This document shows, piece by piece, positions 6,839-34,466 of a stretch of DNA of 52,692 nucleotides (position 1 is its first letter; each line of letters opens with the position of its first letter). Made by a program: the position numbers and the translations under genes. The stretch comes from Bacteroidales bacterium UBA1722 (lineage in GTDB: Bacteria > Bacteroidota > Bacteroidia > Bacteroidales > UBA932). Below the pieces are notes generated by a model that was given only the letters and a program-made list of their open reading frames with translations, had not been told where the DNA came from and made no database searches. The stretch lies in assembly GCA_002317435.1 (NCBI GenBank), contig DCIQ01000194.1:1-52692 (forward strand), given 5' to 3'.

Positions 6839-6925
6839 GGAATTAATGGCTTTCAGAAAAAGCATAAGTGTACGATAGATGAAACATTGTGTACAAAACG
6901 GAAAGTATGGAATGCCACGCGTTCT

Positions 6926-6933
6926 TAACTTTG
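6926..6933 (+). promoter_or_regulatory. Bacteroides-type -7 box (TAacTTTG) for the divergent DUF6057-like/susCD operon
   Basis: TAACTTTG on the plus strand. The first in-frame ATG downstream is at 6984. Confidence 0.4.
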
Positions 6934-6983
6934 CCAACAAGAGCAATTGCTTGGGATATCATGTTATTGATGCGAATGGGATT

Positions 6984-10011: not shown

Positions 10012-10055
10012 CTATTTATAGTTCAATACATTATTTCCAACTAATCACTATATTT

Positions 10056-13067: not shown

Positions 13068-13087
13068 CATCATGATGATTTAATAAT

Positions 13088-14725
13088 ATGACGAATATGA
13101 AAACAATCAAATATTACATACTGGCTCTTCCGGTTATATCAATCCTGTCATCGTGCAGTGATTTTCTGACTACGGTGCCCCACGACCAGCTCTCTCCCGC
13201 CACCACCTGGCAGTCCGAAACGGATGCCAACAAGTTCGTGATCGGGTGTTACGACGACTGGGTGGAGCGTTACGCTTATTTCTACTGGGACTGCTGTTCC
13301 GATTTCGGGTACAGCAACTTCTCCTGGGACGGATTCCGTGTCATAGGAAACGGTTCTTTGAGCCCCAGCGATTATGGCTATTCACTCTATAATTTCACGA
13401 CCGTCCGCAGGTGCAACACCTATCTTGAAAATGTCGGTACCGTTGATTTCAGCAGTGACGCCGTGAAGAATGACCTCGAAGCGCAGGTGAGGGCCATCAG
13501 GGCTTTCAGATATTTTATGATGTGCTCTCTGTACGGCGGTGTTCCGCTCGTCGAGAACTATCAGTCCGCAGCGGAGGCCCAGGTGCCCAGAGATTCCGAA
13601 GAGACTGTGCGCAAGTTCGTCTATGATGAACTGGATGCCATCGCTCCGATGATAAATGAAGCACCCGCCGAACGCGGCCGTATCGCCAGAGGTGCCGTAT
13701 ATGCCATGAAAATGCGTGCCTCCCTGTTCTGGGGAGATTATGCGCAGGCCAAGGAGGCCGCCCAGAAAATCATCGCCCTGAACCAGTATTCCCTCGAACC
13801 CGACTATGCCGAACTTTTCAAGAGTTCCGGCAAAGATTCGCCGGAGATTATCCTCGCATACCAGATGATAAATGATGACTATACCTACAGCTGCTGGGAG
13901 AACGGACAGATGTATCCGAATGCGGACGGCGGATGGTCTTCGATGGTGCCCACGATGAATCTTATCGACAACTATGAGATGGCCAACGGCCTGACCAAAG
14001 ATGAATCGGGTTCCGGTTATGATGCGGAACATCCTTTCCACGGACGTGATCCACGTATGGCGATGACTGTGCTCTATCCCGGCTGTGACTGGCAGGGCAG
14101 GGTATTCAACACCCTTGACGAAACTCTTCCCGGCGGCGCTACCAACTGGGATTATCCCTGGGTGGCTGACAATGCATCGAAAACAGCCCTTTCGTGGCGC
14201 AAATATCTGGATCCCATGTATGCCGACATCTGGGCGAACGACTGCTGCCCTATCGTGTTCCGTTATGCTGAAGTGCTGCTGACCTTGGCGGAAGCCTTGA
14301 ATGAACTCGGCAGTGCTCCCACCAACGATGTGTATGGTTACATCGACCAGGTGAGGATGCGTGCCGGCATGCCGGCAGTTGATCGGACCAAATATAACAC
14401 CAAGGAGAAAGTACGTGAACTGATTATCAGAGAACGCGGCTCCGAATTCGCCGGAGAAGGCCTCCGCAGAGGTGACATCCTCCGCTGCAAGGACGCTTCA
14501 GGAAAGATGCTGGCGATGACAGTGATGAATGATAATCTGAAATGCATCACCGGTACGGTGAATTACAGCGAATCGGATCCCACCTTGAGGGCGACTGTCG
14601 TTCCCGGCGTCACCGAGCCCATCGAGGATCGTGTGTTCGCCGAATATAACAGATATTTCCCTATTCCTCAGGGCAATATCGATGACAATCCGAAACTGGA
14701 ACAGAATCCCGGTTATGCGAATTAG
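13088..14725 (+). CDS. susD: SusD/RagB family nutrient-binding outer-membrane lipoprotein
   Basis: Lipobox ILSSC, ~545 aa, immediately after susC. Typical SusD segments (IRAFRYFMM, FRYAEVLLTLAEA, ERGSEFAGEGLRRGDI, YFPIPQ). Confidence 0.9.
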   Translation: MTNMKTIKYYILALPVISILSSCSDFLTTVPHDQLSPATTWQSETDANKFVIGCYDDWVERYAYFYWDCCSDFGYSNFSWDGFRVIGNGSLSPSDYGYSLYNFTTVRRCNTYLENVGTVDFSSDAVKNDLEAQVRAIRAFRYFMMCSLYGGVPLVENYQSAAEAQVPRDSEETVRKFVYDELDAIAPMINEAPAERGRIARGAVYAMKMRASLFWGDYAQAKEAAQKIIALNQYSLEPDYAELFKSSGKDSPEIILAYQMINDDYTYSCWENGQMYPNADGGWSSMVPTMNLIDNYEMANGLTKDESGSGYDAEHPFHGRDPRMAMTVLYPGCDWQGRVFNTLDETLPGGATNWDYPWVADNASKTALSWRKYLDPMYADIWANDCCPIVFRYAEVLLTLAEALNELGSAPTNDVYGYIDQVRMRAGMPAVDRTKYNTKEKVRELIIRERGSEFAGEGLRRGDILRCKDASGKMLAMTVMNDNLKCITGTVNYSESDPTLRATVVPGVTEPIEDRVFAEYNRYFPIPQGNIDDNPKLEQNPGYAN

Positions 14726-14805
14726 CGTCTGATCATCCGTTCCGGTCATATCATTACGGCCGTATCCTTCTGCGGGAGCAGATGGGTGCGGCCTTTTCTT
14801 CGTGA

Positions 14806-18435
<3,630 letters not shown>

Positions 18436-18444
18436 TGGGTGTCA

Positions 18445-18578
18445 CCATACCGTCTTTTCGTTTCTGGCATGCTTGTTGATGATGGTATGTCAGCATAGAT
18501 AATATGATGGTTAGTGGTGAATAAAAGATTTTGGTTGATAGAGAAGAGTGACTGATGTCCGTCAGTCACTCTTTTTTT
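18445..18578 (+). repeat. Left copy of a ~135-nt direct repeat flanking the NRPS island
   Basis: Hand alignment of 18445.. against 34182.. gives 84 of the first 95 nt identical (~88%). Both copies start ccataccgtcttttcgtttctggca and both end in a hairpin plus T-run. Confidence 0.8.
18546..18578 (+). terminator. Intrinsic terminator after the GH2 gene
   Basis: Perfect 10-bp stem gagtgactga/tcagtcactc, 6-nt loop, then TTTTTTT. Confidence 0.75.
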
Positions 18579-18699: not shown

Positions 18700-19002
18700 A
18701 TGACTGACATTATTGAAAATACTCCCGAGAGAATCGTTATCGTCCTCCGGGGTGAACTGGATACACTTGCCGCCAAGTCTTTTGCGGCGGAAATGGAGCC
18801 TGTGATGGCTGATGCAGGGAAGCGGATAATTCTGGATTTTACCGGGTTGGAGTATATCTCGAGTGCCGGCATGCGTACCATCCTCCTGCTGCAGAAAACC
18901 GCCGGTGCCAAGGGTGGGAAGGTGAGTATCAAAGGCATGAGCGAGGATATCCGTCAGATATTCCGCATGACAGGGTTTGACCAAATAATAGAAATATTAT
19001 GA
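18700..19002 (+). CDS. STAS-domain protein (SpoIIAA/RsbV-like anti-sigma-factor antagonist)
   Basis: 100 aa with the typical STAS layout (IVIVLRGELD, ILDFTGLEYISSAGMRTILLL, FRMTGF). The conserved phosphorylatable Ser position is retained (S54 in ISSAG). The stop overlaps the NRPS start (ATGA). Confidence 0.85.
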   Translation: MTDIIENTPERIVIVLRGELDTLAAKSFAAEMEPVMADAGKRIILDFTGLEYISSAGMRTILLLQKTAGAKGGKVSIKGMSEDIRQIFRMTGFDQIIEIL

Positions 19003-22000
19003 TTTATCCGCTTTCACAGACACAGATGGGCATTTACGTATCGAGCATAAATGCCGGTTCGGAAGGAAAATACAATAACAATTTTCTGTATGGAATCGAC
19101 GATGATGTCGATACGGGCAGGCTTGCGGCTGCCATAGACAGGGTCGTGGCGGCTCATCCGGCACTGTTCGCGCGTCTGACCGTGGATGATGACGGAGATA
19201 TGGCGTTCGAGGAGCACAACGATGAAACGTTCCATACGCTGGAGATGAATGTCGGCAGTCTCGACGAGGTGCGTGACCGCATAGGGGCGGACTTCGATCT
19301 GATGAATGACCGGCTGTTCCGTGTCGAAATTTATCATACCGGGCAGGGCACGTTCCTCTACATAGACATACACCACATCATATCTGACGGCATGACTTTC
19401 GCCCATCTCATAGAAGAGATCGGAGAAGTGTATGACGGCGGGGAACCGATGAAGGAGAAAAAGACCATTTTCGACCTTAACCTTGAGGAACAGGCAGTCC
19501 GTAAAAGTGAAGCGTACATGGAGGCGAAGCAGTGGTACGAAGAGCATTTCGCCGCCGCATCCGGAGTGGATTCGCTCCCCCGGAGTGACATGCAGGTGAA
19601 CGGGCCGTCAGCCGTCGGGACATCGGGTATCGGCATATTGGAACGCACTCTGAATATCGACCGTGACGCTCTGGGCAAATTGTGCGGTGAGGCCGGTGTC
19701 CGTGAAAGCGTATTCTACACTGCGGCATTCGCATTCCTGCTGAGCAAGTTCGCGGGGAACGGCGAAGTTCTGTTCTCCACCATCTATCACGGACGTCCGA
19801 ACAGGGAAGACAGGGATGCGTACGGCATGATGGTGAAGACTATGCCCGTTTATCTGGATATGGAGTCCCGGCCTGCCGTGGCGGACCTGCTGCGCTGTAT
19901 GTCGCAGCAGATCAGGGAGAGCCGCAGGCACACCTGCTATTCCTTCGCGGAAATATGCTCGGACCTGGATCTGAAGTCGGACATCCTCTTCTCCTATCAG
20001 GACACCCTCAACACCTTCCCGCTGAAACTTGACGGCAAATTGCAGCAGGATATGCATATCCCGATGCCGCGTCCGGGAATGGTCTTCAATGTAATGCTCC
20101 TGCAGACTGCCGACGGGCCGGTCATCGAGTTCAAGTACCGGAAGGACATGTTCTCCCGGGCCCTCATTCAGGATATGACCCTGAGTTATGAGAAGATACT
20201 CTCGGAATTTCTTCTCCACGAGAAACTCTGTGAAATCTCCATCGTCAGCCCGGAGCAGCAGAAGATTCTCGACACTTTCCACAATACTGCAGCCGCGGAC
20301 GTCCCCTACAAGCGATTCTACGAACCCATAGAGCATTTCGCGGAGGTCGCTCCCGATGCCGCCGCCATCGTCGCCTGTGACAGGACATTATCATACGGGG
20401 AACTGAACGGGGAAGCAAACCGGGTCGCCCATTCCCTGATGTCCCGCGGAGTAAAGCACGGTGACCGTGTCATTCTCCTCCTTCCCCGCACCAGCCGGGT
20501 CATCTGCTGCATGTTCGGTGTAAGCAAGGCGGGTGCCGCGTACATTCCTTGTGATCCCGCTTATCCGGCCGAGCGCATCAACCTCATCCTGGAGGACAGC
20601 GGGGCGAAGTATATCATAACCACGGATGATCATCTGGCAGAGCATGGCGACAAGGCCATCCTCGTCGATGATTTGTTTGACGGCGGTCTTCCGACAGTCA
20701 ACCCGCGGCTCCCGTCCATAACCCCCGATGATTTGGTGTATCTGATTTACACCTCGGGCTCGACCGGCCGGCCGAAGGGCGTGATGCTGCGCCACGAGGC
20801 GATATGCAACTACCTTTATGATCATCCTGCGAACCGCCATATCCATGCGCTCATGACTGAAGGGGTGAAGTCATACCTGTGTCTCACCACCCTCTCCTTC
20901 GACATGTCTCTGAAGGAGTTCGGCGTGGCTCTTCACAACGGCCTCACCTGTGTGCTTGCGAATGAGGAGGAGACCGAGAACCCCCTGCTCCTCGCCGATC
21001 TGATCAGGCGTACGGGAGTGGAGGCGCTCAATGCCACGCCTTCACGTCTGATGGGTTATATGGAGATACCCGAATTCGAGGGGGCCGTGAATAACTGCAA
21101 GGTCATCATGAGCGGCGGAGAAAAGTACTCAGCCACACTTTTGGACAAGTTGCACGGCATCCCCGGACTCCGCATCTTCAACACCTACGGCCCTACGGAA
21201 ATCACGGTCAGCAGCAATGCCGCCGAACTCACCGACACATCGTTCATCACCATCGGACGCCCGCTGCTCAACTACCACGAATGGGTGGTGGATGCCTGCG
21301 GCAATGAACTCCCCATAGGCGTGACCGGGGAACTCTACATCGGTGGCATCGGTGTTGCCGAAGGCTATAATAACCTTCCCGAGAAGACGGCGGACGCATT
21401 TGTCGAATACAGGGGAATGCGTACATACAAGTCCGGGGACTATGCCCGCTGGACACGTGACGGCCATATAGAGGTACTCGGCCGCCGGGACGGACAAATC
21501 AAACTTCACGGTCTTCGCATCGAAATAGGAGAGATCGAGTCCTGTATCAATAAATATCCGGGCATCAGGCAGTGTGTGGTCAAGGTCTGCCATATCAACA
21601 ATGACGATTTTCTCGCGGCGTACTTTACGGCCGGCGAACAGATTGATACCGATAAGCTGAAAGCTGAAATCAGCAATACGCTGACTCACTATATGGTGCC
21701 AAGTGCATTCATGCAGCTGGAATCTTTCCCTCTGACCCCGAACGGGAAAACGGATGTGAAGAACCTGCCGGTGCCCGAAATGATGCCGGCGGTGAATGTG
21801 GAGAAGTCATCAACGGGGCCGGTGGCGCTGAACGATCTGGAAAAGCAGCTGTATGACATCGTTGCGGGTGCATTGAAACTCCCTCTCATCGGGGATTCGG
21901 AAGACGCGGTTCCGGCTTTCGGCGTCACTGACGCACTCTCGTCCGCGGGTCTGAGTTCGCTTTCGGCCATTAAGGTCGCAACGCTGATTTACAAACGTTT

Positions 22001-25000
22001 CGGCATACAGTTGAAATCACGGGAGCTGATGGACGGCGCGACTCTGTTCAGTATCGAGAACCTGATTCTGAAGCGTCTTCTCTCCGCTTCGGACAGTGAA
22101 AACCACGATGCGGAAGAAACCGCTCCTCATCCCGAAAAGAAGAGGTCGGAAACGGAGTTGCCGCTTTCCTTCACCCAGCAGGGTGTCTATACCGAGTGTC
22201 AGGCCAACCCAGATGCGGTGCAATACAATATTCCCGAGTGCATAAAAGTGCCGGACGGTATTACTCCCGAACAGCTGGAGACAGCCGTAAGAAAGGTGGT
22301 GGCCGCGCACCCTTATCTCTTCTGTCACTTTGTCGAAGGTGACAACGGCGATATCGTACAGAAACCGTCGGACAGCACCAGCTTCCGGATACCGCACATC
22401 CAGTGTTCCGCTGAAGGGTTTGAACAGGAGAAGAAAAACTTCGTCCGTCCGTTCCATCTGGCGGAAGGGCCGCTTTTCCGTTTCGAAACGGTGACGGTCG
22501 GCGGCACGCTCCATTTGTTGACGGACATGCATCACCTCATAAGCGACGGCGCTTCGGTGGATCTGTTCATGCATCAACTCTGCCGGGCACTTGACGGCGG
22601 GGAGATAGAGGAGGAAAAATATTCATACTATGACTTCGTCGCCGACCAGCATATCAGTCGGGAGACGGAGGATTTCTTCGCAGACCGCATGGCCAGAGTG
22701 GAGAATTCTTCGCAGCTTATTCCGGATGTATTCGAACAGAATCTGCCGCACACCGAAGGGACGGTTTCCGCACCTTCCGACTTCGCCCCCGTGCAGGCTT
22801 GGGCATCAGAAAATGGCGTGACTCCCGCTGCCGTCTATCTGTCGGCGGCATACTTGTGTGTCTCACGATATCTTTGCGAAGACAACGTAAACCTCTGCAC
22901 CATTTCCAATGGCCGCAGCAACCTCCAGGTGGCGGACACGATGGGTATGTTTGTGAACACTCTCGTGCTTCAGTCATACGTCGACCATCAGGTCTCCTGT
23001 CTTGATTTCGTCAGAACATGTGCCCGGGACTTCGCGCTGACCATCGAAAATGAGAATTATCCGTTCGCGAAGATAGCGGCGAAGTATGGATACCAGCCCA
23101 ATATCGCATTCGCCTATCAGGTCGGCGTGCTCGGCGATTACAGGACGAAGGCGGGAGAACTGGAAATCCGGAGTCTCAGCCTCGAAGTTGCGAAGATCGG
23201 GGTGAACATAACGGTCCGTGGCGAGGATGCGACCGGCTATCGCATAAAGGTAGATTATGATGAAGCTCTGTATTCCCGATACATGATGCAGCAGCTGGCT
23301 GTCAGTATGGAAAATGCCGTTCGGGGAATAATCAGTCGGGAGAAGCTTGGTGATGTCAGCATCACTGATGAGGAACAGTGGAGTGTTCTGGATAAATTCA
23401 ATGCACCGCTCGACTTCGGTTATGACCGGGATGATACGGTCGTCACGAAGTTCAAACGTGTCGCCCGGCAGTATCCGGACCAAAAGGCTTTGGTCTATAT
23501 GGACAAGTCTTACACTTACGGTGAATTGGATAAGTTTACGGATCGTCTTGCGGTAAAGATTCGTGAGCGGATGCTTCCGTATATTCAGGAGGTTGAACGT
23601 CTGCAGGTGGAGCAGGACGGAACAAAACTCACCGATGTGGTGGTCTCCATCCTCATTCACCGTAACGAATGGATGCTCTTGGCTTCACTTGCGGTTTTGA
23701 AGGCAGGATGCGGATATCAGCCGCTGGATCCGAGTTATCCTCAGGACCGTCTGAATTTCATGGCAAAGGATGCCGGCGCCCGTCTTCTCATCGTGGATGA
23801 GGACTTGCGGGATCTTCTCAACGAGTATGACGGGGACGTGCTCCTGACCGGGGACATCGCTGACCTTATAGCCGACACCCCGGAAGGAAGCGTCGATTTC
23901 AGCCGCAAGAACGGTCTTGTCACGCTGCTCTACACTTCCGGTTCCACGGGTGTGCCTAAAGGGTGTATGCTTGAGCACAGAAACCTCGTCGCCTTCGGTC
24001 ATGCCACGCGTACGACCCTGGACATCTCGACCGACAGCCGCATCGCCGCATACGCATCGTTCGGCTTCGATGTGAATATGATGGACATGTACTGCTCCAT
24101 CATGAATGGAGGTACCATGTACATCATCCCGGAAGATATGCGCATGAATCTCGATGTCCTGCATGACTACATTGAAGACGAAGGTATCACTCAGATATTC
24201 ATGACCACGCAGGTGGGCGTGCAGTATCTGGAAAACTATCCCGAGTCCAAGTCTCTCCGCCGCCTTGCGATGGGGGGCGAAAAACTGCGGGCCGTGGATC
24301 CAGGCAAGCTTTCATATAAGATATATAATGGTTATGGACCCAGTGAGATGACCTGCGGTGTCAGCATGTTCACCATCGAAAACTGGGAGCCGAACATTCC
24401 CATCGGACGCCCTATGCCCACACTGCAGGGATATGTCGTCGACAAGACGGGGCACCGTCTCCCGGTGGGCGCCGCCGGTGAACTGTGGATAACAGGTCCT
24501 CAGGTGGCCCGCGGATACTTGAACCGTGCGGACAAGACAGCCGAGGCTTTCTCCGGGAATCCGTTCATCGACCACGCCAGGACTGCGGTCGATTCGGAGC
24601 GTCAGCTCTGCTCGCGCATCTATCACAGCGGCGACATCGTGCGCTACCGCGAAAACGGAGACATAGAGTTCGTCGGACGCAAGGACGGTCAGGTGAAGGT
24701 TCGCGGTTTCCGTATCGAGCTGAAGGAGGTCGAAACTGTCATCCGTGAATTTCAGGGTGTGAAGGACGTTACCGTTCAGGCATACGACTATGAGGACGGC
24801 GGCAAGTATATCGCGGCATTCGTAGTCAGTGACACTGCGGTCGATACCGATGCGCTGAACGCTTTCATCAAGAGTCAGAAGCCTCCCTATATGGTGCCTG
24901 CCGTCACCATGCAGATCGAGAAGATCCCTCTGAACGTAAACCAGAAGGTGGACAAGAAGGCACTTCCCAAACCGGAAGCCAAAAAGGCCGAATATGTCGC

Positions 25001-26492
25001 CCCGAAGGGGAAGACGGAGGAAGACTTCTGTCAGATATTCTCAGAGGTGACGGGTGTCGAAAAAGTGAGTGCCGAGGATGATTTCTTCGAGATCGGCGGC
25101 AGTTCCATTCTGGCTCTGAAGGTCGTTCTTGCCGCAGGAAAGAAGGGATACGGTATCGTGTATAATAACGTGTTCTCCTACACGACTCCAAAGGCGATGG
25201 CGCAGTTCGTGACAGGAAAAAGCGACGATGAAGACTCCGAATCCCCGACATGTCCCGAAACTCCCGGGACCGTCAGAGAAGTGGATGAAGACGGCTATGA
25301 CTATAAGGATGTTAATGCTTTGCTGCGCGGAAATACTATGGAGGCCTTCATGAACGGAGGAAGACAGCCTCTCGGTGATGTCCTTCTGACAGGCGGGACA
25401 GGCTTCCTCGGTGTACATGTACTGCATGATCTCATTGAAAATTATGACAACAGGATTTATTGTCTGGTCCGCGGCGGTAAGGATAAGAGTGCGCAGGCAC
25501 GTCTTGAAGAGTATCTGACCTTCTATTTCGGCAAGTCATACGCCGAATTGACAGGCGGTCGCATTGTGGTCATCGAGGGTGATGCGACAGACCCGGCGAC
25601 CTTTGACAAGGTCATGGAAACGATGGGCGACCATTCCGGAGACTGCACCTGTATAAACTGCGCCGCCTGTGTGAAGCACTTCGCCAAGGGTAACGAGATC
25701 GAGCAGATAAACGTCGGCTCGGTACGCAACATAGTGGATTGGTGTATCCGGACCGGTAACAGACTTGTTCATGTCTCTACGGAGAGCGTGTTCGGCAAGA
25801 ATGATTTCTCGACGTTACCACGCGACTTCCGATATGACGAGCACATACTCTACGGAGGTCAGCAGTTCAGGTACAACCAGTACACGATGTCCAAGTTCGA
25901 GGCTGAAGTGCTCATCTATGAGGCGATTCTTCAGCATGGACTGAATGCCAAGGTTATGCGTGTCGGAAATCTTGCACCGAGATTTGAGGATGGAGGTTTC
26001 CAGATAAATGCCGAAAGCAACAATATGATGAACCTGTTCAAGGCATATATTGCACTGGGCAAGATTCCGTTCAGCGCTATGGATGCCAAACTCGAGTTCT
26101 CGCCGATAAATTATGTCGCACATGCGATATTGCTGCTTGCCGAAACTCCCCGGGAGTGTGTCTGCTTTATGCCGAGCAACCACCACGTCTCACTTCAGGG
26201 CGATATCGTGACGGATATCGCCGGGACACTTCGAAAACCTCTGGAACTGGTGGAGGCCGATGTCTTCGCGAAGGCGGTGCAGGAAGCTCTCGCCTCACCG
26301 GAACTGGTTGACAGCATGCGCCCGTTTATGGCTTATCAGAGCGGCGAATCGAACAGCAGGATGAGAAGTGCAGGTCCCGGAGATTTCTCGAATGCCTTCA
26401 CCATTCAGGTCCTTTACCGTCTCGGCTTCCGTTGGCCGGTGACAGGTACCGGATATGTCGCCCGATTTACAAAGAATCTCTATGGCCTTTGA
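18999..26492 (+). CDS. Non-ribosomal peptide synthetase, two modules plus terminal reductase (C-A-T-C-A-T-R)
   Basis: C1 has HHIISDG (nt ~19371). A1 has YTSGSTGRPKG, NTYGPTE, GELYIGG, YKSGD, GRRDGQIKLHGLRIE, PNGKTD. T1 has AGLSSLSAIK. C2 has MHHLISDG (nt ~22530). A2 has YTSGSTGVPKG, NGYGPSE, GELWITG, YHSGD, GRKDGQVKVRGFRIE. T2 has FFEIGGSSILALK. R has LLTGGTGFLG (nt ~25383) and YTMSK. Confidence 0.95.
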   Translation: MIYPLSQTQMGIYVSSINAGSEGKYNNNFLYGIDDDVDTGRLAAAIDRVVAAHPALFARLTVDDDGDMAFEEHNDETFHTLEMNVGSLDEVRDRIGADFDLMNDRLFRVEIYHTGQGTFLYIDIHHIISDGMTFAHLIEEIGEVYDGGEPMKEKKTIFDLNLEEQAVRKSEAYMEAKQWYEEHFAAASGVDSLPRSDMQVNGPSAVGTSGIGILERTLNIDRDALGKLCGEAGVRESVFYTAAFAFLLSKFAGNGEVLFSTIYHGRPNREDRDAYGMMVKTMPVYLDMESRPAVADLLRCMSQQIRESRRHTCYSFAEICSDLDLKSDILFSYQDTLNTFPLKLDGKLQQDMHIPMPRPGMVFNVMLLQTADGPVIEFKYRKDMFSRALIQDMTLSYEKILSEFLLHEKLCEISIVSPEQQKILDTFHNTAAADVPYKRFYEPIEHFAEVAPDAAAIVACDRTLSYGELNGEANRVAHSLMSRGVKHGDRVILLLPRTSRVICCMFGVSKAGAAYIPCDPAYPAERINLILEDSGAKYIITTDDHLAEHGDKAILVDDLFDGGLPTVNPRLPSITPDDLVYLIYTSGSTGRPKGVMLRHEAICNYLYDHPANRHIHALMTEGVKSYLCLTTLSFDMSLKEFGVALHNGLTCVLANEEETENPLLLADLIRRTGVEALNATPSRLMGYMEIPEFEGAVNNCKVIMSGGEKYSATLLDKLHGIPGLRIFNTYGPTEITVSSNAAELTDTSFITIGRPLLNYHEWVVDACGNELPIGVTGELYIGGIGVAEGYNNLPEKTADAFVEYRGMRTYKSGDYARWTRDGHIEVLGRRDGQIKLHGLRIEIGEIESCINKYPGIRQCVVKVCHINNDDFLAAYFTAGEQIDTDKLKAEISNTLTHYMVPSAFMQLESFPLTPNGKTDVKNLPVPEMMPAVNVEKSSTGPVALNDLEKQLYDIVAGALKLPLIGDSEDAVPAFGVTDALSSAGLSSLSAIKVATLIYKRFGIQLKSRELMDGATLFSIENLILKRLLSASDSENHDAEETAPHPEKKRSETELPLSFTQQGVYTECQANPDAVQYNIPECIKVPDGITPEQLETAVRKVVAAHPYLFCHFVEGDNGDIVQKPSDSTSFRIPHIQCSAEGFEQEKKNFVRPFHLAEGPLFRFETVTVGGTLHLLTDMHHLISDGASVDLFMHQLCRALDGGEIEEEKYSYYDFVADQHISRETEDFFADRMARVENSSQLIPDVFEQNLPHTEGTVSAPSDFAPVQAWASENGVTPAAVYLSAAYLCVSRYLCEDNVNLCTISNGRSNLQVADTMGMFVNTLVLQSYVDHQVSCLDFVRTCARDFALTIENENYPFAKIAAKYGYQPNIAFAYQVGVLGDYRTKAGELEIRSLSLEVAKIGVNITVRGEDATGYRIKVDYDEALYSRYMMQQLAVSMENAVRGIISREKLGDVSITDEEQWSVLDKFNAPLDFGYDRDDTVVTKFKRVARQYPDQKALVYMDKSYTYGELDKFTDRLAVKIRERMLPYIQEVERLQVEQDGTKLTDVVVSILIHRNEWMLLASLAVLKAGCGYQPLDPSYPQDRLNFMAKDAGARLLIVDEDLRDLLNEYDGDVLLTGDIADLIADTPEGSVDFSRKNGLVTLLYTSGSTGVPKGCMLEHRNLVAFGHATRTTLDISTDSRIAAYASFGFDVNMMDMYCSIMNGGTMYIIPEDMRMNLDVLHDYIEDEGITQIFMTTQVGVQYLENYPESKSLRRLAMGGEKLRAVDPGKLSYKIYNGYGPSEMTCGVSMFTIENWEPNIPIGRPMPTLQGYVVDKTGHRLPVGAAGELWITGPQVARGYLNRADKTAEAFSGNPFIDHARTAVDSERQLCSRIYHSGDIVRYRENGDIEFVGRKDGQVKVRGFRIELKEVETVIREFQGVKDVTVQAYDYEDGGKYIAAFVVSDTAVDTDALNAFIKSQKPPYMVPAVTMQIEKIPLNVNQKVDKKALPKPEAKKAEYVAPKGKTEEDFCQIFSEVTGVEKVSAEDDFFEIGGSSILALKVVLAAGKKGYGIVYNNVFSYTTPKAMAQFVTGKSDDEDSESPTCPETPGTVREVDEDGYDYKDVNALLRGNTMEAFMNGGRQPLGDVLLTGGTGFLGVHVLHDLIENYDNRIYCLVRGGKDKSAQARLEEYLTFYFGKSYAELTGGRIVVIEGDATDPATFDKVMETMGDHSGDCTCINCAACVKHFAKGNEIEQINVGSVRNIVDWCIRTGNRLVHVSTESVFGKNDFSTLPRDFRYDEHILYGGQQFRYNQYTMSKFEAEVLIYEAILQHGLNAKVMRVGNLAPRFEDGGFQINAESNNMMNLFKAYIALGKIPFSAMDAKLEFSPINYVAHAILLLAETPRECVCFMPSNHHVSLQGDIVTDIAGTLRKPLELVEADVFAKAVQEALASPELVDSMRPFMAYQSGESNSRMRSAGPGDFSNAFTIQVLYRLGFRWPVTGTGYVARFTKNLYGL

Positions 26493-29376
26493 TTTTTCAA
26501 ACAAAATCGTCGGGGTTCTGGTCGAACGGACGCACGACATAGTGGATGCCGCTGAAGCGATAATCCGCGGTGGCGGCGTTTTCATGCCGATCGACAAAAG
26601 CTATCCTCAGGACCGTGTGGACTACATGATGCAGGATGCCGGGGCCGCTCTGCTTCTGACGACTGACATTCCGAAAGGAAACGGGTGTCTGGACTGGGGA
26701 GGCAAGGATATGGATGATGCGGCGATGATATTATATACTTCCGGAACTTCGGGACGGCCCAAGGGGGTGGTGCATACGCGGCGTTCCATCGAGGCGATGA
26801 TCGCTGCCACCCTGCAAGTCGCTCCCGTCAGGCCGGAGAGCCATGTCGCCATCGTCGCCGGTTTCACATTCATCGCATCTCAATTCCTGATTTTTACGGC
26901 ATTGAAACAAGGAGCCGCGATACATGTCGTCGATGATGCGACGAGACAGGATTTTGATTTGTTGTACGATTACATCAGGGAGCACAGCATAGACATAGTG
27001 TTCCTGCCTCCCGCCATAGCGACCGTCATGGCGGAGGAGTATGATATGCGGGGGATAACGATTCTGTCCGCGGGTGACAAGTTGCGCAACTTCAAATCCA
27101 AATATCCCTGTGTGATTTGCAATATGTACGGCAGCACGGAGGGTGTCATCGTCACTGCGGGGAAGATAACTGGAGACGAACCGAACATCTCCATCGGCAA
27201 ACCGTTGGATGGAATCGACGTGCGCATCGTTGACGAACAGTTGAACGATGTCCCCGAAGGTGAAGTCGGTGAACTGATATACAGCGGAGCCGTTCAGGCC
27301 AAAGAATACCTGAATCTTCCCGAACAGACCGCAGGCAAGTGGTTCACGGGTGAAGACGGCCGGCGCTGGTTCAGGATGGGCGACCGGGTGAACCGCCGGG
27401 ACGACGGTAATCTGTATTATGTGGGCCGTACCGACAATATGGTAAAGATACGCGGATTCCGCGTGGAGACGGGCGAGGTCGAACGACAGATTTCACGTGT
27501 GGTGCCATCCGTCGAGGTGGCCGTCGTAATGCGCACGGTGCATGGTATTGACCATCTGGTGTGTTTCTATGAGAACGACAGTGAGATTCAGACTGATGTG
27601 GTGAAGGAAGAAATCGCGAAATCGCTTGCCGAGTACATGATCCCCGATATATGGGTGCGTCTGGATCGCCTGCCCCGTAACGCCAACGGAAAGGTCGTGC
27701 GTAGGGAACTGCCTGTTCCGGCCTCGGGGGCGGACAAGCTCAGCATCGTATTCAACGAGGTCGAGATGCGTGTCGTGGAGGCTGCCAAACTTATTGTCGG
27801 AGACACCATATCGCTCGATGACAATTTCTTCGAATGCGGGGGAACATCCCTTGGCGCCATCAAACTGGCGACCCTGCTCAAGACCATGGGCATCCATATA
27901 ACCGGTTCGCAGATAATGCAGCTCAGGACACTGCGTTTGGTAGCCAAGGAGGCGAAGGCTGATTATGAACGCCTTTGGACCTCTGAACAGTACCGTGAAA
28001 TATGCGACAGTTTCGCGGCGAGAGGCGAAAAAATCCGGAAGGTCCTGCCTCTTTCTACGGAACAGGAAGACATACTCATCCGCTATCTGATGCATCCTGA
28101 TGCCACCGCTTACCGGAATGTATTTCTGCTCAAGCTGGACAGCCGTGTCGATAAGGATATTCTGCGCAGTGTCATAAATGAAGTCTCCGACAGGTATGAA
28201 GTTCTCCGTTCTGCGATCGTCATTCACCACAAGGCGCCCTTTCAGCAGATAATCACAGACAGGTGTGTGCCCCTGGATATTTATGATGATATCGCTGACA
28301 CGGACATAAGTTATGTGAAGAGCCTTTACAGGCGATATATGCACACTCCTTATGATCCGGAAATATCGTCCCTGATGCGTTTCGGTTACGTTCCTCTCTC
28401 CGACGGCACTTCGTTTCTGCTGCTCCTTGTAAATAATGTCAGCGTGTCGATGAGCATAGCCCGCCGCACGATTCATGATGTTATGGACCGACTTTCCGGA
28501 CACTTCCCGGATGACCTGTCGATAACCGGGTGGCGTGATCTGGCGGCACTTGCATTGAGCAGTGAAAGTCAGAATGTGACGGGGGGTGCTGACGTCGAAA
28601 TAAAAAAGCCTGTTGACAACGGATTGATAAGGGTCTATTCTCCGTTGAAGGAGGGTAAACCCCCGGTGACGTTTGTCCATACCGGAAATACCGGGAGTGA
28701 TGCGTACTATCGTCTTGCCGACAGGATAGGAGAGAATTGTGCGTTTTCTGTCATTGAACCATATAATCTGTTCCATCAGGATGACATACGGCATGGTATC
28801 GGGAATATCGCACGGAAATATGTGGAAATCCTCCGTGATTATCAGCCGGAGGGTCCTTACATACTTGGGGGATGGTGCTATGGAGGTGTTGTCGCACACG
28901 AGATGGCCTGCCAGCTCCAAGCGATGGGGGAGGAGGTCCGCCATCTGATAATGTTTGACTCCCACGCGCTGACGGACGACAATCTGACATCTATGGCGAG
29001 GGATATGCAGGGAACCGTCGACCGTGAATATTTCGAGACTTGCCCGCTCTTCGAAGATCTTCGCGGACAGGGACTTCTGGAGGCGATGATCAATAACTGC
29101 GCACAGGTCTGCCATGACCTCCTGCATCACACTCCTTCCATGTTCCATGGAGCCACGACATATTTCAAACCCCTCCGTACACCTGTGGCAGCTACGGGCA
29201 ACGCTCTTGAATATTGGAAGAGGATGATGGAATTCGATGCCGGAAATTACGAGAATTTCTGTGATCGGAATCAGTTGCGTATTATCAATACCCCTCATGA
29301 GCACGATCTTATGATGGACGATGAATCGCTGGCCGTCACGGTACCGGCCATCAACGGAATACTTGGTCATCATTAA
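26482..29376 (+). CDS. Non-ribosomal peptide synthetase, A-T-(degenerate C fragment)-TE
   Basis: The A domain starts near core A2 (no LTYxEL region). It has ILYTSGTSGRPKG, NMYGSTE, FRMGD, GRTDNMVKIRGFRVE, NANGKV. T has FFECGGTSLGAIK. A ~190-aa C-domain N-lobe follows, with VNNVSVS in place of HHxxxDG. The alpha/beta-hydrolase TE has GGWCYGG. The ATG at 26482 overlaps the upstream stop (ATGGCCTTTGA); an alternative ATG lies at 26455. Confidence 0.9.
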   Translation: MAFDFSNKIVGVLVERTHDIVDAAEAIIRGGGVFMPIDKSYPQDRVDYMMQDAGAALLLTTDIPKGNGCLDWGGKDMDDAAMILYTSGTSGRPKGVVHTRRSIEAMIAATLQVAPVRPESHVAIVAGFTFIASQFLIFTALKQGAAIHVVDDATRQDFDLLYDYIREHSIDIVFLPPAIATVMAEEYDMRGITILSAGDKLRNFKSKYPCVICNMYGSTEGVIVTAGKITGDEPNISIGKPLDGIDVRIVDEQLNDVPEGEVGELIYSGAVQAKEYLNLPEQTAGKWFTGEDGRRWFRMGDRVNRRDDGNLYYVGRTDNMVKIRGFRVETGEVERQISRVVPSVEVAVVMRTVHGIDHLVCFYENDSEIQTDVVKEEIAKSLAEYMIPDIWVRLDRLPRNANGKVVRRELPVPASGADKLSIVFNEVEMRVVEAAKLIVGDTISLDDNFFECGGTSLGAIKLATLLKTMGIHITGSQIMQLRTLRLVAKEAKADYERLWTSEQYREICDSFAARGEKIRKVLPLSTEQEDILIRYLMHPDATAYRNVFLLKLDSRVDKDILRSVINEVSDRYEVLRSAIVIHHKAPFQQIITDRCVPLDIYDDIADTDISYVKSLYRRYMHTPYDPEISSLMRFGYVPLSDGTSFLLLLVNNVSVSMSIARRTIHDVMDRLSGHFPDDLSITGWRDLAALALSSESQNVTGGADVEIKKPVDNGLIRVYSPLKEGKPPVTFVHTGNTGSDAYYRLADRIGENCAFSVIEPYNLFHQDDIRHGIGNIARKYVEILRDYQPEGPYILGGWCYGGVVAHEMACQLQAMGEEVRHLIMFDSHALTDDNLTSMARDMQGTVDREYFETCPLFEDLRGQGLLEAMINNCAQVCHDLLHHTPSMFHGATTYFKPLRTPVAATGNALEYWKRMMEFDAGNYENFCDRNQLRIINTPHEHDLMMDDESLAVTVPAINGILGHH

Positions 29377-31114
29377 TGGAAATCAGAAGGTGAAACGGAA
29401 AGTTTTTTTGATCAACAAGGCATTCAACAAATACCTGTGGGCTTCCATTCTGGGAGTGGCAGCCTCGCAGATCGCGAATATCGTCGATGCGTCGCTGGTG
29501 GGAAACATCATCGGGGCCGACGGGCTGGCGGCTGTCGTAATCAGCAAGCCGGTTCTTCAGGCCATTTTCGCCATCTCCTGTTTTTATGCCGTGAGCTGCA
29601 GCATGATCGCCGGTATGGCTTTGGGTAATGGCGAAAAGGCCGCCGCCGACTCACAGTTCTCATTCTCCATGGCGGCAAGTCTGGTATTGGGAATAGTGAT
29701 TTCCGCCGGGGGGCTGATTTTCATCGAACCCCTGATGGACCTGTTCTGCAGATCACAGGAGCTTCGTCCCATGGCCAAATCATTTATGACGGTGACCATA
29801 CTGTCGGCCCTTCCCCAGCTGTTCATGTACACACTGCACCGGTTTGTCACTACGGACGGCTCACCGAAACTGATTTCCAAGGCTGTAATCGTGGGAAACC
29901 TGGTCAACGTCGTTCTGGATGTCGTCTTTATGAAATATCTGAACATGGGCATAGCCGGCGCCGCATGGGCTACGTTCATCATGTATATAGTGTGTTGTGT
30001 CATGGTGATTCCGCATTTCCGTAAGAAGGATACGCTTCGTCTGGCATTCGGACGATGTCGGAAACTTATCTCCGTCAGACAGATACTGACCTTGGGAACA
30101 CCGATTTTCCTCTCTACCGTGCTCCTTTCCGTGCAGTACACGTGCTACAATGGCATCGCCGTCACATATCTGGGCAAATCCGGGCTCATCGCCCTGGCGG
30201 TTTGTCTGCAGCTGTTCAGTTTCTCCATGATTATCCTCACCGGAACTTTGCAAGCCATTCAGCCTGTAGGCGCCATACTCAAAGGTATCAATGACTCGAA
30301 GGGGATAATCATGCTTTTGGGAAAAGCTTATAAGTTTCTGGCGGTCTGTCTGGCGGTCTATTCACTGCTGATTGTTATCTTCCCTGTGGAGATATCCGGT
30401 TTCCTGGGGGTGAAAGATGGAAGTGCGCTCCCGACCGTCATGGCGGCTTTGCCTGCTTTCTCTCTGAATATCGTGATGCAGGCGCTGCTCTACAACCTGA
30501 TGCCTGTCTATCAGTTCTACAATCATCACCGCATGGCACTGTTTCTGTCCGTAGGTCAGACATTGCTGCCGATTGCCGGTTTCTGGGCACTGGCGCATTT
30601 TCAGACGTTCAACCCGTGGTATGGTTTTTTTCTCGGTCAGTCAGTGACAGCCATTGTCCTTTTGGTGTCATCACTGTTCATCAGCAGGAAGGAAAATTCG
30701 ATTCCTGTGTTCCTGGTTCCCCGCGGAAATGGATTCCCGTCGCTGGAGATGTCGTTCGGCTACTCCGAAGAAGCGATGCATAAGGCATTTGACGAGATGA
30801 GCGGGTGGCTTGGGCAGCAGAATCTTTCGAAGAGCATAATCTTCAAGGTCCGTATTCTGGCAGAGGAACTGATGTCCAATATAATCCGTCACAGCGGACA
30901 GAAAGACAAGAATGCGTTCGCCGACGTGCGTCTGTTTATGCAGGAGGATGCAGTCATATTCGCCCTCACGGATGACGGCAAACCGTTCAATCCCATTGAA
31001 AACAAGGACAAGGGGTATGGCCTGATGATAGCCAACGGAGTCGCAAGTGACATTTCATACAAATATCAATTCGGCCAAAATATGACCAATGTAATCATAA
31101 ATACAGAAGCGTGA
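29321..31114 (+). CDS. MATE family efflux transporter fused to a C-terminal RsbW/SpoIIAB-like GHKL (HATPase_c_2-type) domain
   Basis: ~440 aa with 12 hydrophobic segments and MATE-like repeats (IVDASLVGNIIGADGLAAV). The C-terminal ~130 aa carries N-box AEELMSNIIRH, LTDDGKPFNP and KGYGLMIANG. The start is uncertain: the ATG at 29321 overlaps the upstream gene by 56 nt, while the in-frame GTG at 29390 (VKRKVFLINK) lies 14 nt after the upstream stop and may be the true start. Confidence 0.8.
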   Translation: MNRWPSRYRPSTEYLVIINGNQKVKRKVFLINKAFNKYLWASILGVAASQIANIVDASLVGNIIGADGLAAVVISKPVLQAIFAISCFYAVSCSMIAGMALGNGEKAAADSQFSFSMAASLVLGIVISAGGLIFIEPLMDLFCRSQELRPMAKSFMTVTILSALPQLFMYTLHRFVTTDGSPKLISKAVIVGNLVNVVLDVVFMKYLNMGIAGAAWATFIMYIVCCVMVIPHFRKKDTLRLAFGRCRKLISVRQILTLGTPIFLSTVLLSVQYTCYNGIAVTYLGKSGLIALAVCLQLFSFSMIILTGTLQAIQPVGAILKGINDSKGIIMLLGKAYKFLAVCLAVYSLLIVIFPVEISGFLGVKDGSALPTVMAALPAFSLNIVMQALLYNLMPVYQFYNHHRMALFLSVGQTLLPIAGFWALAHFQTFNPWYGFFLGQSVTAIVLLVSSLFISRKENSIPVFLVPRGNGFPSLEMSFGYSEEAMHKAFDEMSGWLGQQNLSKSIIFKVRILAEELMSNIIRHSGQKDKNAFADVRLFMQEDAVIFALTDDGKPFNPIENKDKGYGLMIANGVASDISYKYQFGQNMTNVIINTEA

Positions 31115-32901
31115 GACGAATAGCAATAACACTCATCCTCTCCGTCATCGTGTTTGCGGCCACAATTCTGGTCTCAATCATGTACATATCCAGAAAGAGC
31201 CTCGAAACAGCGGATTATTTCAACAATCTCGCTCTGGACAATTTTCAGGATGAACTGAATGATGAAATTTTCCTGACCAGGCAGTCCGCTTTCAGTTTCC
31301 TTACCGGAATTCCTTCCGTATATGTAGGGAAGGACAGTGCCAGCATCATCATCGATGAAAAGGAACTGTCCGAGTTCAAGGATGCGATCCATGACGTTCT
31401 GATACAGTTCATGAGAGTCAATAAGTATTATCGGAATACGATGTTCATCATCGACAGGGATATATGCCGCAAATACTTCCCATGTGAAGATACTGCTTAC
31501 ATCGGGCATTGTACGAAGGGATTTGTCCCTGCCGTCCTGCAGGGTGACAATGCATTGTATGACCTGTCCGACCAGTATGACTTTATGGGTTCCGCCCGAT
31601 ATCAACAGTTGAAAAGAGAAAGAAAAATTCTTTGGACCGCACCTCAACCTGTCTCTCCGGAGGAAATGAGATTGTTGATACTCCAAGTGCCGATGACTTT
31701 GAGCAACGGACAGTTCGCAGGTGCATTCACCGTGTCGCTGGATATCGGGACGGTAAATGAAAAATTGAAGAATTACCTGCCGTTCGGTGAGGAGTATTCC
31801 GCCATATTCCTTGTTGACGAAAACGACAATATATTTTCCTCCTGTCCGGAATGGATTATGGAGCCGGACAGCCAGGAAGAAATTCGTAATTCCACCGATC
31901 TGCTGCAGAGACACGACGAGGGCGCCGAGCATAATATCATTAAAATCGGTGAGGATGAATACTATGTATATCAGCGTGATGACCTTTCATTGCCCTGGAG
32001 AGTCTTCACGGCCAATAACTCGAAAGCCATTTATCACGACGCGAAGCATGTGGTCAACGCCATGATTCTCTCCTCAGTCACGGGAATGCTTATGATGCTT
32101 GTCTGCTGCGTCGTCATTTTTCGTCAGACACGAAAGAATCTGCGCAAGAAAGCGGCCATAGAGGAGGAGCTGCGTATGGCTGCGATGGTGCAGACCTCGA
32201 TGCTGAAGCCGTCCACCTGTACCTTCTCACATAATTCCTCACCGATCATCCTGAATGCCTTTGTGCAGCCGGCCAAAAAGGCGGGAGGAGATCTATATGA
32301 TTATATCGAGAAAGATGGAAAACTTATCTTCTGTATCGGTGACGTCTCCGGAAAGGGGATGCCGGCGGCACTGTTCATGACCCAGGTGGTTTCACTCTTC
32401 CGCAATGCGGTGCGCCGTACTTCGGAACCGTCTGAAATAGTATGTCAGATAAATGACGTGCTTTCAGACAATTCCGAGATGACTTTCTGTACCTTCTTTG
32501 CAGGTGTGCTGTGCGGGGATGAAATAACGTTCTGCAATGCAGGCCACAATCCCCCCGTGTTCATTTCTTCCCGCTCCTCATATCTGAAAGTGCGTCCCAA
32601 TATCGCGATCGGGCTGATGGAAGGCTATCCATACCGGTCGGAGACCATTTCCTTCCGTCCGGGGGACAAATTGGTGCTCTATACCGATGGAGTCACTGAA
32701 GCAAAGGACAGAAACCATAGACTGTATGGTGAGGAGAGACTTCTCAAGGTGCTTGAATCCATTTCGCGAAGTTCGGGTGCCGAAACCGGTTCATGGATCA
32801 ACACGGCCATCAGAAAATCCATGGAACAGTTCACACGACACGCCGAGCAGAGTGACGACATCACGATAATGAGTATCGAAAATTCACATATTATGTCCTG
32901 A
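31111..32901 (+). CDS. Transmembrane PP2C/SpoIIE-family serine phosphatase with ~300-aa extracytoplasmic sensor domain (RsbU-like)
   Basis: TM1 is IAITLILSVIVFAATILVSIMYI, followed by a ~300-aa loop and TM2 VVNAMILSSVTGMLMMLVCCVVIF. The SpoIIE domain has GGDLYDY, GDVSGKGMPAALFM, LYTDGVTEA, SDDITIM. The GTG start overlaps the MATE stop (GTGA). Confidence 0.85.
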   Translation: MRRIAITLILSVIVFAATILVSIMYISRKSLETADYFNNLALDNFQDELNDEIFLTRQSAFSFLTGIPSVYVGKDSASIIIDEKELSEFKDAIHDVLIQFMRVNKYYRNTMFIIDRDICRKYFPCEDTAYIGHCTKGFVPAVLQGDNALYDLSDQYDFMGSARYQQLKRERKILWTAPQPVSPEEMRLLILQVPMTLSNGQFAGAFTVSLDIGTVNEKLKNYLPFGEEYSAIFLVDENDNIFSSCPEWIMEPDSQEEIRNSTDLLQRHDEGAEHNIIKIGEDEYYVYQRDDLSLPWRVFTANNSKAIYHDAKHVVNAMILSSVTGMLMMLVCCVVIFRQTRKNLRKKAAIEEELRMAAMVQTSMLKPSTCTFSHNSSPIILNAFVQPAKKAGGDLYDYIEKDGKLIFCIGDVSGKGMPAALFMTQVVSLFRNAVRRTSEPSEIVCQINDVLSDNSEMTFCTFFAGVLCGDEITFCNAGHNPPVFISSRSSYLKVRPNIAIGLMEGYPYRSETISFRPGDKLVLYTDGVTEAKDRNHRLYGEERLLKVLESISRSSGAETGSWINTAIRKSMEQFTRHAEQSDDITIMSIENSHIMS

Positions 32902-32960
32902 TCATCTCCCGTTTTTATCGGGCGGCAATATTTTTCAATCATTACTAATTTCTATTTTTC

Positions 32961-34181: not shown

Positions 34182-34317
34182 CCATACCGTCTTTTCGTTT
34201 CTGGCACACTTGTTGACAATGGTATGTCAGCATAGATGATGTGATGGTTGATGGTGAATAAATGGTTTTGGTTAATGGAAAAAAGGTGACTGATAAAACT
34301 TATCGGTCACCTTTTTT
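34182..34317 (+). repeat. Right copy of the ~135-nt direct repeat flanking the NRPS island
   Basis: See the left copy at 18445..18578. Same orientation and same internal 6-bp complement (catacc/ggtatg). Different terminator hairpin sequence at the 3' end. Confidence 0.8.
34284..34317 (+). terminator. Intrinsic terminator closing the island
   Basis: Stem aggtgactgat/atcggtcacct (one G-T wobble), 7-nt loop, then TTTTTT. Confidence 0.7.
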
Positions 34318-34438
34318 CTGTATATGTATTATTTCCAGACGATTTTTGTCCTCCTGTCTCATAAATGTAATCAGTGCATATTTGGCCAAATGCAATGTCG
34401 ATCGGTGCCTTTTGGCTGATTATCTTAATTTTTATCCT

Positions 34439-34446
34439 TATATTTG
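34439..34446 (+). promoter_or_regulatory. Bacteroides-type -7 box (TAtaTTTG) for the AAA ATPase gene
   Basis: TATATTTG lies 21 nt before the ATG at 34467. Confidence 0.4.
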
Positions 34447-34466
34447 CCCATCTGACAAGGACAAAC

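Follow-up and report, generated by a model that had tools for sequence, protein, structure and literature searches.

A nonribosomal peptide synthetase (NRPS) operon was analysed in a 52,692-nucleotide stretch of DNA from Bacteroidales bacterium UBA1722 (contig DCIQ01000194.1), the whole of which is referred to here as the window. From the gene for a STAS protein, which starts at 18700, to that for a Y_phosphatase3-family protein, which ends at 34112, consecutive genes are spaced by -4, -38, +13, -4 and +59 nt (Table 1). The stop codon of the STAS gene overlaps the start codon of the NRPS gene (ATGA), and the end of the NRPS gene is in turn overlapped by the gene for a second, NRPS-like protein, termed here the companion. 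In the domain strings used below, C, A, T, R and TE denote condensation, adenylation, carrier, reductase and thioesterase domains, and C* denotes a condensation remnant. It is probable, on the evidence set out below, that the open reading frame (ORF) 18999-26492 encodes a functional dimodular NRPS, that this enzyme is the core of operon 18700-34112 and makes a reduced peptide, and that the companion is something other than a terminator of the chain.

Table 1. Positions of the operon, its genes, their domains and the flanking hairpins in the window
Feature	Positions	Strand	Details
NRPS operon	18700-34112	+	~15.6 kb; overlapping or closely packed genes, hairpin at each end
Upstream hairpin, AGAGTGACTGA / TCAGTCACTCT and T-run	18545-18578	+	3' of GH2 gene; from reading of the sequence
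STAS anti-sigma-antagonist-like protein	18700-19002	+	100 aa from ATG; Pfam STAS 1.5e-17
Dimodular NRPS, C1-A1-T1-C2-A2-T2-R	18999-26492	+	2497 aa, ATG start
C1 condensation domain	19002-20264	+	Pfam Condensation positions 4-453/456, E 2.3e-43; HHIISDG aa 125-131
A1 adenylation domain	20271-21803	+	Code DMKNMGTVSK
T1 carrier domain	21849-22055	+	Pfam PP-binding; Ser987 in GLSS(L)
C2 elongation condensation domain	22149-23339	+	HHLISDG aa 1178
A2 adenylation domain	23439-25007	+	Code DVMFAGG(C)(G)K
T2 carrier domain	25026-25211	+	GGSS, Ser2036
R terminal NAD(P)H-dependent thioester reductase	25380-26489	+	TGGTGFLG (aa 2131), S2260-T2261, YTMSK (aa 2295; Y2295, K2299)
Companion NRPS-like protein, A3-T3-C*-TE	26455-29376	+	973 aa, or 964 aa from start 26482
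A3 adenylation domain	26500-27720	+	Code IAFFLAMIVK
T3 carrier domain	27796-27945	+	GGTS, Ser465 invariant
C* condensation remnant	27961-28578	+	Pfam Condensation positions 2-135/456
TE thioesterase domain	28627-29373	+	Pfam Thioesterase; Cys808-Asp835-His950, GGWCYGG
MATE exporter with C-terminal HATPase_c_2 domain (RsbW/SpoIIAB-type Ser kinase)	29390-31114	+	
Sensor phosphatase, Cache and SpoIIE/PP2C	31111-32901	+	SpoIIE 4.6e-45
Y_phosphatase3-family gene	32961-34112	+	Last operon gene before terminator; Pfam
Terminator-like hairpin	34275-34321	+	20-bp stem, then T-rich tail

The dimodular synthetase and its reductase

Pfam assigned to the NRPS two Condensation domains, two AMP-binding domains with AMP-binding_C, two PP-binding domains and a C-terminal NAD_binding_4/Epimerase domain. 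Domain limits were obtained from scans of excised segments (C1, aa 2-422; T1, 951-1019; C2, 1051-1447; T2, 2010-2071; R, 2128-2497). The resulting C-A-T-C-A-T-R order is that proposed in an initial annotation of this DNA, and all of the motifs quoted there (HHIISDG, SFDMS, GFDVN, TGGTGFLG and YTMSK) were found in the translation. Conservation was counted in an alignment of 58 dimodular relatives, and the ratio of nonsynonymous to synonymous substitution rates (dN/dS) was calculated against an 83%-identical metagenomic relative, L003 (L and P, each with a number, label related loci and related proteins, respectively). The catalytic His and Asp residues of C1 and C2, the serines of T1 and T2 and the motifs of R were invariant or nearly so. 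In the HHxxxDG motif of C1, the second His and the Asp were present in 58/58 relatives, the first His in 56/58 and the Gly in 54/58; Ser987 of T1 was likewise invariant (58/58). A dN/dS of 0.11 was determined for the NRPS gene, and all genes and domains measured gave values of 0.056-0.22. Given that E-values reached 1e-144 and that its domains are under purifying selection, the feature is beyond chance, and the ORF is real, intact and under selection.

The NAD_binding_4 match of the R domain (aa 2128-2386) scored 121 bits against a cut-off of 20.1, an HMM result that upholds the earlier assignment of a C-terminal reductase of the short-chain dehydrogenase/reductase (SDR) type. The TGxxGxxG motif, S2260/T2261, Y2295 and K2299 were retained in 58/58 dimodular relatives. 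Among solved structures, R matched the peptidyl carrier protein-reductase (PCP-R) part of Mru_0351 from Methanobrevibacter ruminantium best (6VTJ; 1.9e-58) and the R domain of AusA second best (4F6C; 1.7e-29), with the alcohol-forming MxaA and Mtb R domains matching more weakly (5.8e-17 and 1.1e-9). Judged by these motifs and matches, R is an intact NRPS terminal thioester reductase of the SDR type (PF07993). Mru_0351, whose product is also unknown (PMC8024701), is thus the closest solved relative of R and belongs to a rumen organism, but its host is an archaeon, unlike that of the window, and the comparison covers the PCP-R part alone. The resemblance of R to this archaeal protein lies well above that to the bacterial AusA R domain and may reflect gene exchange among rumen organisms.

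Specificity codes of the A domains were read from an alignment to a GrsA-PheA sequence, which returned the published code DAWTIAAICK as a check on the numbering; the A2 code was read partly by hand from the translation. Both A1 and A2 are of the amino-acid type, keeping Lys517 and, as initially annotated, Asp at the GrsA-235 position, and the A2 pocket is lined by small residues. The published codes nearest to that of A1 are the homoserine codes DLKNLGTDVK and DLKNVGSDVK (PMC12283262). Codes of the form DMKN(M/L/W)GTVSK occur in module 1 only in the clade of the window (six proteins); of 17 dimodular relatives with a code of the DMKN.GTVSK type, 11 have it in module 2. P0017, P0020, P0021 and L024 were among the relatives compared. 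The codes indicate an apparent swap of module order in the window's clade relative to other members of the family. Lys239 is typical of Glu-activating A domains; because of this association and because the homoserine codes are the nearest, A1 may be regarded as a polar, homoserine- or Glu-like candidate pocket. The 556-bit score of A1 against LgrA proved to combine two ordinary A-domain hits (254 and 301 bits) and was not considered special.

Among the best 120 database matches, 58 were C-A-T-C-A-T-R proteins of 2400-2530 aa; the few with named sources came from Muribaculaceae, Bacteroidaceae and Selenomonadaceae metagenome-assembled genomes (MAGs). The closest species-representative genome was that of Prevotellaceae bacterium UBA1743 (72% identity), followed at 33-49% identity by rumen, horse, goat and buffalo MAGs from Prevotellaceae, Bacteroidaceae, Ruminococcaceae, Oscillospiraceae, Lachnospiraceae and Marvinbryantia. 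When contexts were sampled by way of other proteins (four fusions of a MATE exporter to a kinase domain and four distant companion homologues), an R-terminated NRPS adjoined in 8/8. The opinion that NRPS clusters are uncommon in gut Bacteroidales did not survive this comparison: many homologues belong to Prevotellaceae, Muribaculaceae and Bacteroidaceae, and 934 of 5,346 NRPS clusters in a rumen survey were from Bacteroidaceae (PMC8241843).

Dimodular, R-terminated NRPSs of gut bacteria produce dipeptide aldehydes, some of them N-acylated (PMC8210680), and many products of the family have been isolated as pyrazinones (PMC12327764, PMC8210680); the same two sources bear out both the citation of Guo et al. 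in the initial annotation and the gist of what was ascribed to it. The window NRPS resembles the synthetases of Guo et al. and the ruminopeptin synthetase (Schneider & Balskus 2018), which are dimodular and reductase-ended, with an optional N-terminal C domain that leads to N-acyl products. Putative membership in the family is suggested by the (C-)A-T-C-A-T-R architecture; indirect sequence evidence is confined to homologues at 33-49% identity in gut and rumen Clostridia and Bacteroidales. The family is hosted by anaerobic gut organisms, a habitat that the host of the window may share, and homologues of 36-49% identity occur in Ruminococcaceae, Oscillospiraceae, Lachnospiraceae and Marvinbryantia MAGs. 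The characterised members named in PMC10039858 and PMC12327764 come from Ruminococcus and Blautia, whereas the host of the window is a Prevotellaceae-like member of the Bacteroidales. In terms of architecture, then, the NRPS is an uncharacterised relative of the gut and rumen dipeptide-aldehyde synthetases.

The companion protein

Position 235 of A3 is occupied by Ile. The equivalent residue is Val or Ile in 76/86 relatives of the companion and Asp in 0/86. In addition, A3 has Ser at the Pro of the GPTE motif (Pro325), where relatives show Ser, Met, Gln or Cys. Both the Asp and the Pro are retained in all amino-acid A domains of the related loci. A domains that activate keto acids have a hydrophobic residue instead of the Asp and Met instead of the conserved Pro; the Asp is also lost from A domains for hydroxy acids (PMC11253843). 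Because Asp235 and the Pro of GPTE are both replaced, A3 should, by this precedent, activate an acid without an α-amine, plausibly a 2-oxo or 2-hydroxy acid.

Relative to longer relatives, A3 in the window's clade lacks the first ~45-50 aa, which include core motif A1, and ~30 aa between core motifs A2 and A3. The remaining core motifs are intact, the dN/dS of the domain is 0.12, and five independent metagenomic sequences with 76-87% identity share the trimmed form of the companion (964-966 aa). Within C*, the sequence VNNVSVS stands in place of HHxxxDG, and the site is unconserved in the 86 relatives. An AlphaFold2 model gave predicted local distance difference test (pLDDT) values of 82-94 for C* and 86 for the whole companion, and the dN/dS of C* is 0.10. 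We read C* as a catalytically dead structural remnant; shorter relatives of the companion (818-827 aa) are entirely without it.

The TE domain recognised in this gene by the initial annotation was confirmed by Pfam and, at a dN/dS of 0.056, is under stronger constraint than any other domain. The triad Cys808-Asp835-His950 was invariant in 47 relatives, and GGWCYGG was invariant in 86. The best match in the PDB was AB3403 from Acinetobacter baumannii (4ZXH), in which the corresponding Cys motif is GGWCFGG. The likeness is confined to the TE and its nucleophile motif, GGWC(F/Y)GG; AB3403 differs from the companion in being a full C-A-T-TE module with an amino acid as its substrate. Only generic multi-domain NRPS structures were retrieved when the model of the entire companion was searched with Foldseek.

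A companion gene lies directly 3' of an R-terminated NRPS gene in the window and in 14 distinct related loci from Bacteroidales and Clostridia. In domain strings it follows R directly in the window, L001, L003, L004, L005, L006, L016 and L025-L031. It was always found after R and never ahead of C1, and it was never found alone in the sampled contexts. The second release domain, initially thought unusual, is therefore part of a standard A-T-(C*)-TE companion. Three clusters with C1 (L008, L015 and L018) lack the companion, and L029 carries both the companion and a cis A0-T0 loading module. Given that the companion and the starter C domain occur independently, the companion is probably not simply a loader of an N-terminal cap, and probably not a competing terminator either.

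Stand-alone A-T-TE quinone and furanone synthetases (AtrA, TdiA, CorA and others) share an A-T-TE layout with the companion; they and the keto-acid A domain of the cereulide synthetase StsA also resemble it in that a hydrophobic residue replaces Asp235 (PMC11253843, PMC10316625), and the replacement of the conserved Pro is shared with keto-acid A domains (PMC11253843). Unlike the quinone and furanone enzymes, the companion has half a C domain between T and TE and was always found beside an R-terminated NRPS. An assignment to that stand-alone class was rejected on these grounds, namely the operonic arrangement in all sampled contexts and the extra C remnant, and on that of the code, which presumably differs from the fungal aromatic keto-acid code. 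We know of no description of an A-T-(C*)-TE companion, and searches of the available literature returned none of this enzyme or of the exporter-fused partner-switching kinase described below.

Three Prevotella/Prevotellaceae MAG loci (L011, L012 and L019) begin with a cis loading domain, A0, that is without Asp235 (VPHISGIGMK or IPQISGVGMK) and has Ser at the Pro position of GPTE. Their greatest similarity is to A domains of the amino-acid type (41-43% identity with A2 of the window), and they were found not to be orthologous to A3 when this was tested. It appears that a non-amino-acid starter was adopted independently in these loci.

Proposed product formation and possible role of the companion

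C1 is the first domain of the NRPS, with no carrier domain upstream, and its HHxxxDG motif is intact. The family's N-terminal C domains, C1 included, make up a clade that excludes its elongation C domains. Together with the position and the motif, this agrees with the starter role originally assigned to C1. The clade takes in clusters with and without a companion gene; a correspondence between the clade and the presence of the companion was tested and rejected. A PvdL match of C1 was examined as a possible lipo-initiation C domain and set aside, the Foldseek title of the matched chain being PvdL-E2-C3-A3-PCP3 and the domain thus apparently C3, an elongation C domain. In a Lachnospiraceae MAG (L030, 947-8395), a stop codon splits the N-terminal C domain from the rest of the NRPS, and the gene caller placed the start of the protein at the first A domain; this could be a sequencing or assembly error or an incipient loss of the starter C domain.

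The following pathway is proposed. C1 would N-acylate the first residue, and its donor would likely be acyl-CoA or acyl-acyl carrier protein because the same C1 clade occurs in clusters without the companion. C2 would form the dipeptide, and R would release an N-capped dipeptide aldehyde by two-electron reduction, over-reduction to the alcohol being possible. The MATE protein would then export the product. The companion, rather than acting as a second terminator of the same chain, would activate a non-amino acid and then use its Cys-Asp-His thioesterase. We lean, without great confidence, towards a companion that acts beside or after reductive release, derivatising the aldehyde or alcohol or making a co-product. 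Three observations favour this role over loading in trans: the companion strictly follows R, its Cys triad is invariant, and it occurs independently of C1. A more specific version is rather doubtful: the companion would be a new post-release tailoring enzyme, in which a 2-oxo or 2-hydroxy acid is coupled by the Cys-TE to the aldehyde or alcohol, combined with gating of synthesis or export that dispenses with a sigma factor. If it were correct, the product would be a hybrid, formed for example by aldol-lactonisation or esterification, and not a simple dipeptide aldehyde.

Several points weigh against this pathway and against a functional synthetase. A peptide-aldehyde product is a reasonable prediction from the genes, but aldehyde- and alcohol-forming R domains are indistinguishable by sequence (PMC8024701). 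The best PDB matches of C1 are ordinary elongation C domains, TycC6 and the PvdL C domain; surfactin synthetase entry 8F7F, which we take to be the SrfA-A starter C domain, matched at only 1.4e-7. The A1 code is identical to the homoserine codes at only 6/10 positions, and a literature search for the exact code DMKNMGTVSK returned no published match. The activity of the trimmed A3 is not assured, though selection argues that it is functional. Scans of all sizeable ORFs of the window detected no phosphopantetheinyl transferase (PPTase; Pfam ACPS), and tblastn of the window with four cluster-linked ACPS proteins from relatives gave no match; activation of the NRPS would therefore rely on a gene located elsewhere. 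Such a gene adjoins the cluster in L026, L028, L030 and L031. Finally, only 5% of the cluster's sampled 31-letter words were present in public sequencing runs, and no expression data were found there.

An unlikely alternative is that the companion primes the synthetase in trans. Here, A3 would load a non-amino acid on T3, C1 would use acyl-S-T3 as its donor, and the Cys-TE would edit mis-primed T3, with an N-(2-oxoacyl, hydroxyacyl or other acyl) dipeptide aldehyde as the product. Trans-loading has precedents in TomA/TomB and NpsA-ThdA/NpsB. Several features fit such a scheme: C1 needs a donor and has no carrier domain before it, A3 has lost Asp235 and Pro325 as expected for an amine-free cap, the companion gene is translationally coupled to the NRPS gene, and L011, L012, L019 and L029 have a cis A0-T0 loader with the same hallmarks before the first C domain. 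However, the C1-type NRPSs of L008, L015 and L018 manage without a companion, L029 has its own cis loader as well as a companion, and the cis A0 domains are not orthologues of A3. Moreover, the companion gene is always placed after R and never before C1, and a TE with an invariant triad and the lowest dN/dS would be odd in a mere editing role.

Release of an alcohol is improbable on present evidence. In this case, R would perform a four-electron reduction to an N-acyl dipeptide amino alcohol, which the Cys-TE may esterify with the acid on T3. NRPS R domains can yield alcohols, and their sequences do not discriminate between the outcomes (PMC8024701); an alcohol would also give all companion-bearing clusters a shared nucleophile, regardless of their A-domain codes. 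Set against this, the closest characterised solved R domain after that of Mru_0351 is the aldehyde-forming one of AusA, MxaA and Mtb rank lower, and esterifying TE chemistry is without precedent in the family.

Comparably improbable is a route like that of AusA/PznA, the aureusimine synthetase of Staphylococcus aureus, in which C1 would be unused for acylation and the free dipeptide aldehyde would pass by way of a dihydropyrazinone to a pyrazinone end product. The window NRPS contains the A-T-C-A-T-R core of AusA and, like it, is predicted to release a dipeptide aldehyde by reduction, AusA is its best NCBIfam model, and pyrazinones are, as noted above, the isolated form of many family products. 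By contrast, AusA is without an N-terminal C domain, a companion A-T-TE and partner-switching genes. The NRPS was rejected as an AusA equivalog (NF047350) at 975.9 bits against a cut-off of 2500, the best matched stretch being aa 973-2430, and the conservation of the C1 motif in 54-58/58 relatives, with the second His and the Asp invariant and a dN/dS of 0.22 indicative of purifying selection, is at odds with an unused domain. That the cluster is decaying or non-functional is barely credible: a trimmed A3, a dead C* and the absence of a PPTase gene from the window would fit, but all ORFs are intact, dN/dS is 0.06-0.22 for all genes and domains, and the trimmed companion is conserved in the five metagenomic sequences.

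Exporter, partner-switching genes and genomic setting

The proposed pathway, with the companion acting beside or after release, is accompanied in the operon by a partner-switching set, which comprises a STAS protein whose phospho-acceptor motif contains Ser, a kinase domain of the HATPase_c_2 type and a PP2C phosphatase. The STAS protein (dN/dS 0.06) scored 66.9 bits against a cut-off of 53.45 with the NCBIfam model ant_ant_sig, and its ISSAG motif is presumably at the position of the phosphorylated Ser of SpoIIAA/RsbV. The ORF of the MATE-kinase fusion is open from 29321, and a start near 29390 was placed by comparison with relatives. The dCache_1 match of the phosphatase (28.5 bits) is below the Pfam cut-off of 45; the L003 orthologue has the same annotation.

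These are the same three components as in the RsbV-RsbW-RsbU and SpoIIAA-SpoIIAB-SpoIIE modules. Unlike in those modules, the kinase is fused to a MATE exporter, and none of the scanned ORFs in the window matched a sigma-factor family. STAS, PP2C or kinase genes were seen in most of the informative loci, from Bacteroidales and Clostridia alike (L001, L003-L006, L008, L009, L015, L016, L018, L019 and L024-L030), and not in L011-L013 or L031. The MATE-kinase fusion was present in at least 120 protein clusters, and 4/4 genomic contexts sampled adjoin an R-terminated NRPS. The fusion partner of the kinase domain is the MATE protein in Bacteroidales and the PP2C phosphatase in several Clostridia; in some Clostridia (P0205 and P0210) it is the companion. 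P0205 (1206 aa) corresponds to ORF 10935-14606 of the 15,945-bp contig on which L016 also lies. Because the kinase is here fused to the companion instead of the exporter, it is suggested that the kinase is anchored to pathway proteins instead of a sigma factor. In the window, the STAS protein, the RsbW-like kinase domain on the exporter and the Cache-PP2C protein would probably form a post-translational gate on export or synthesis that responds to an external ligand sensed by the Cache domain. Literature searches for partner switching linked to NRPSs found nothing.

Peptide aldehydes of gut commensals are potent protease inhibitors, and the cluster stands for a large uncharacterised branch in Bacteroidales/Prevotellaceae that is abundant in herbivore guts. 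Its interest lies less in the synthetase than in two conserved accessories, the A-T-(C*)-TE companion with its Cys thioesterase and the partner-switching kinase fused to the exporter, which may mean that the products and their control depart from the published dipeptide-aldehyde picture.

The operon is flanked by typically Bacteroidales genes (a hybrid two-component regulator, SusC/SusD, a GH2 enzyme and GS-III), which, with UBA1743 as the closest genome, agrees with the host order named at the outset. The surroundings of the cluster vary among relatives, with GH95/GH3 genes in L003 and a HigB toxin and HTH gene in L001; because of these differing contexts, the cluster is suggested to be mobile. 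MbtH had no match among the scanned ORFs of at least 150 aa in the window, shorter ORFs outside the operon not having been scanned; given that the intergenic gaps inside the operon are at most 59 nt, no MbtH-sized gene fits within it. With the PPTase searches described above, this supports the statement in the initial annotation that neither gene is present. Rfam returned no RNA family in the window.

The upstream hairpin is a likely terminator, read from the sequence, that would separate the NRPS operon from polysaccharide-utilisation genes on its 5' side. These belong to a typical polysaccharide-utilisation locus (2889-18435), in which a 1314-aa hybrid two-component regulator is encoded on the minus strand; the locus also holds SusC/SusD, DUF6057 and PD40-repeat proteins and a GH2 β-galactosidase that carries an N-terminal ricin-type lectin domain. 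Long antisense ORFs across the cluster, the largest of which lie on the minus strand opposite the GH2 gene (15487-17328, 613 aa) and opposite the companion gene (27493-29373, 626 aa), matched no Pfam family and were taken as shadow ORFs. The downstream hairpin likely marks the end of the operon. The Y_phosphatase3-family protein shows a weak SAM_HAT_C match at its N-terminus, and a 29%-identical homologue is encoded near the cluster in the Ruminococcaceae MAG L005 (11449-12597). Past the downstream hairpin, the gene at 34374-35873 encodes a protein with an ATPase_2/AAA domain and a weak MarR_2 match.

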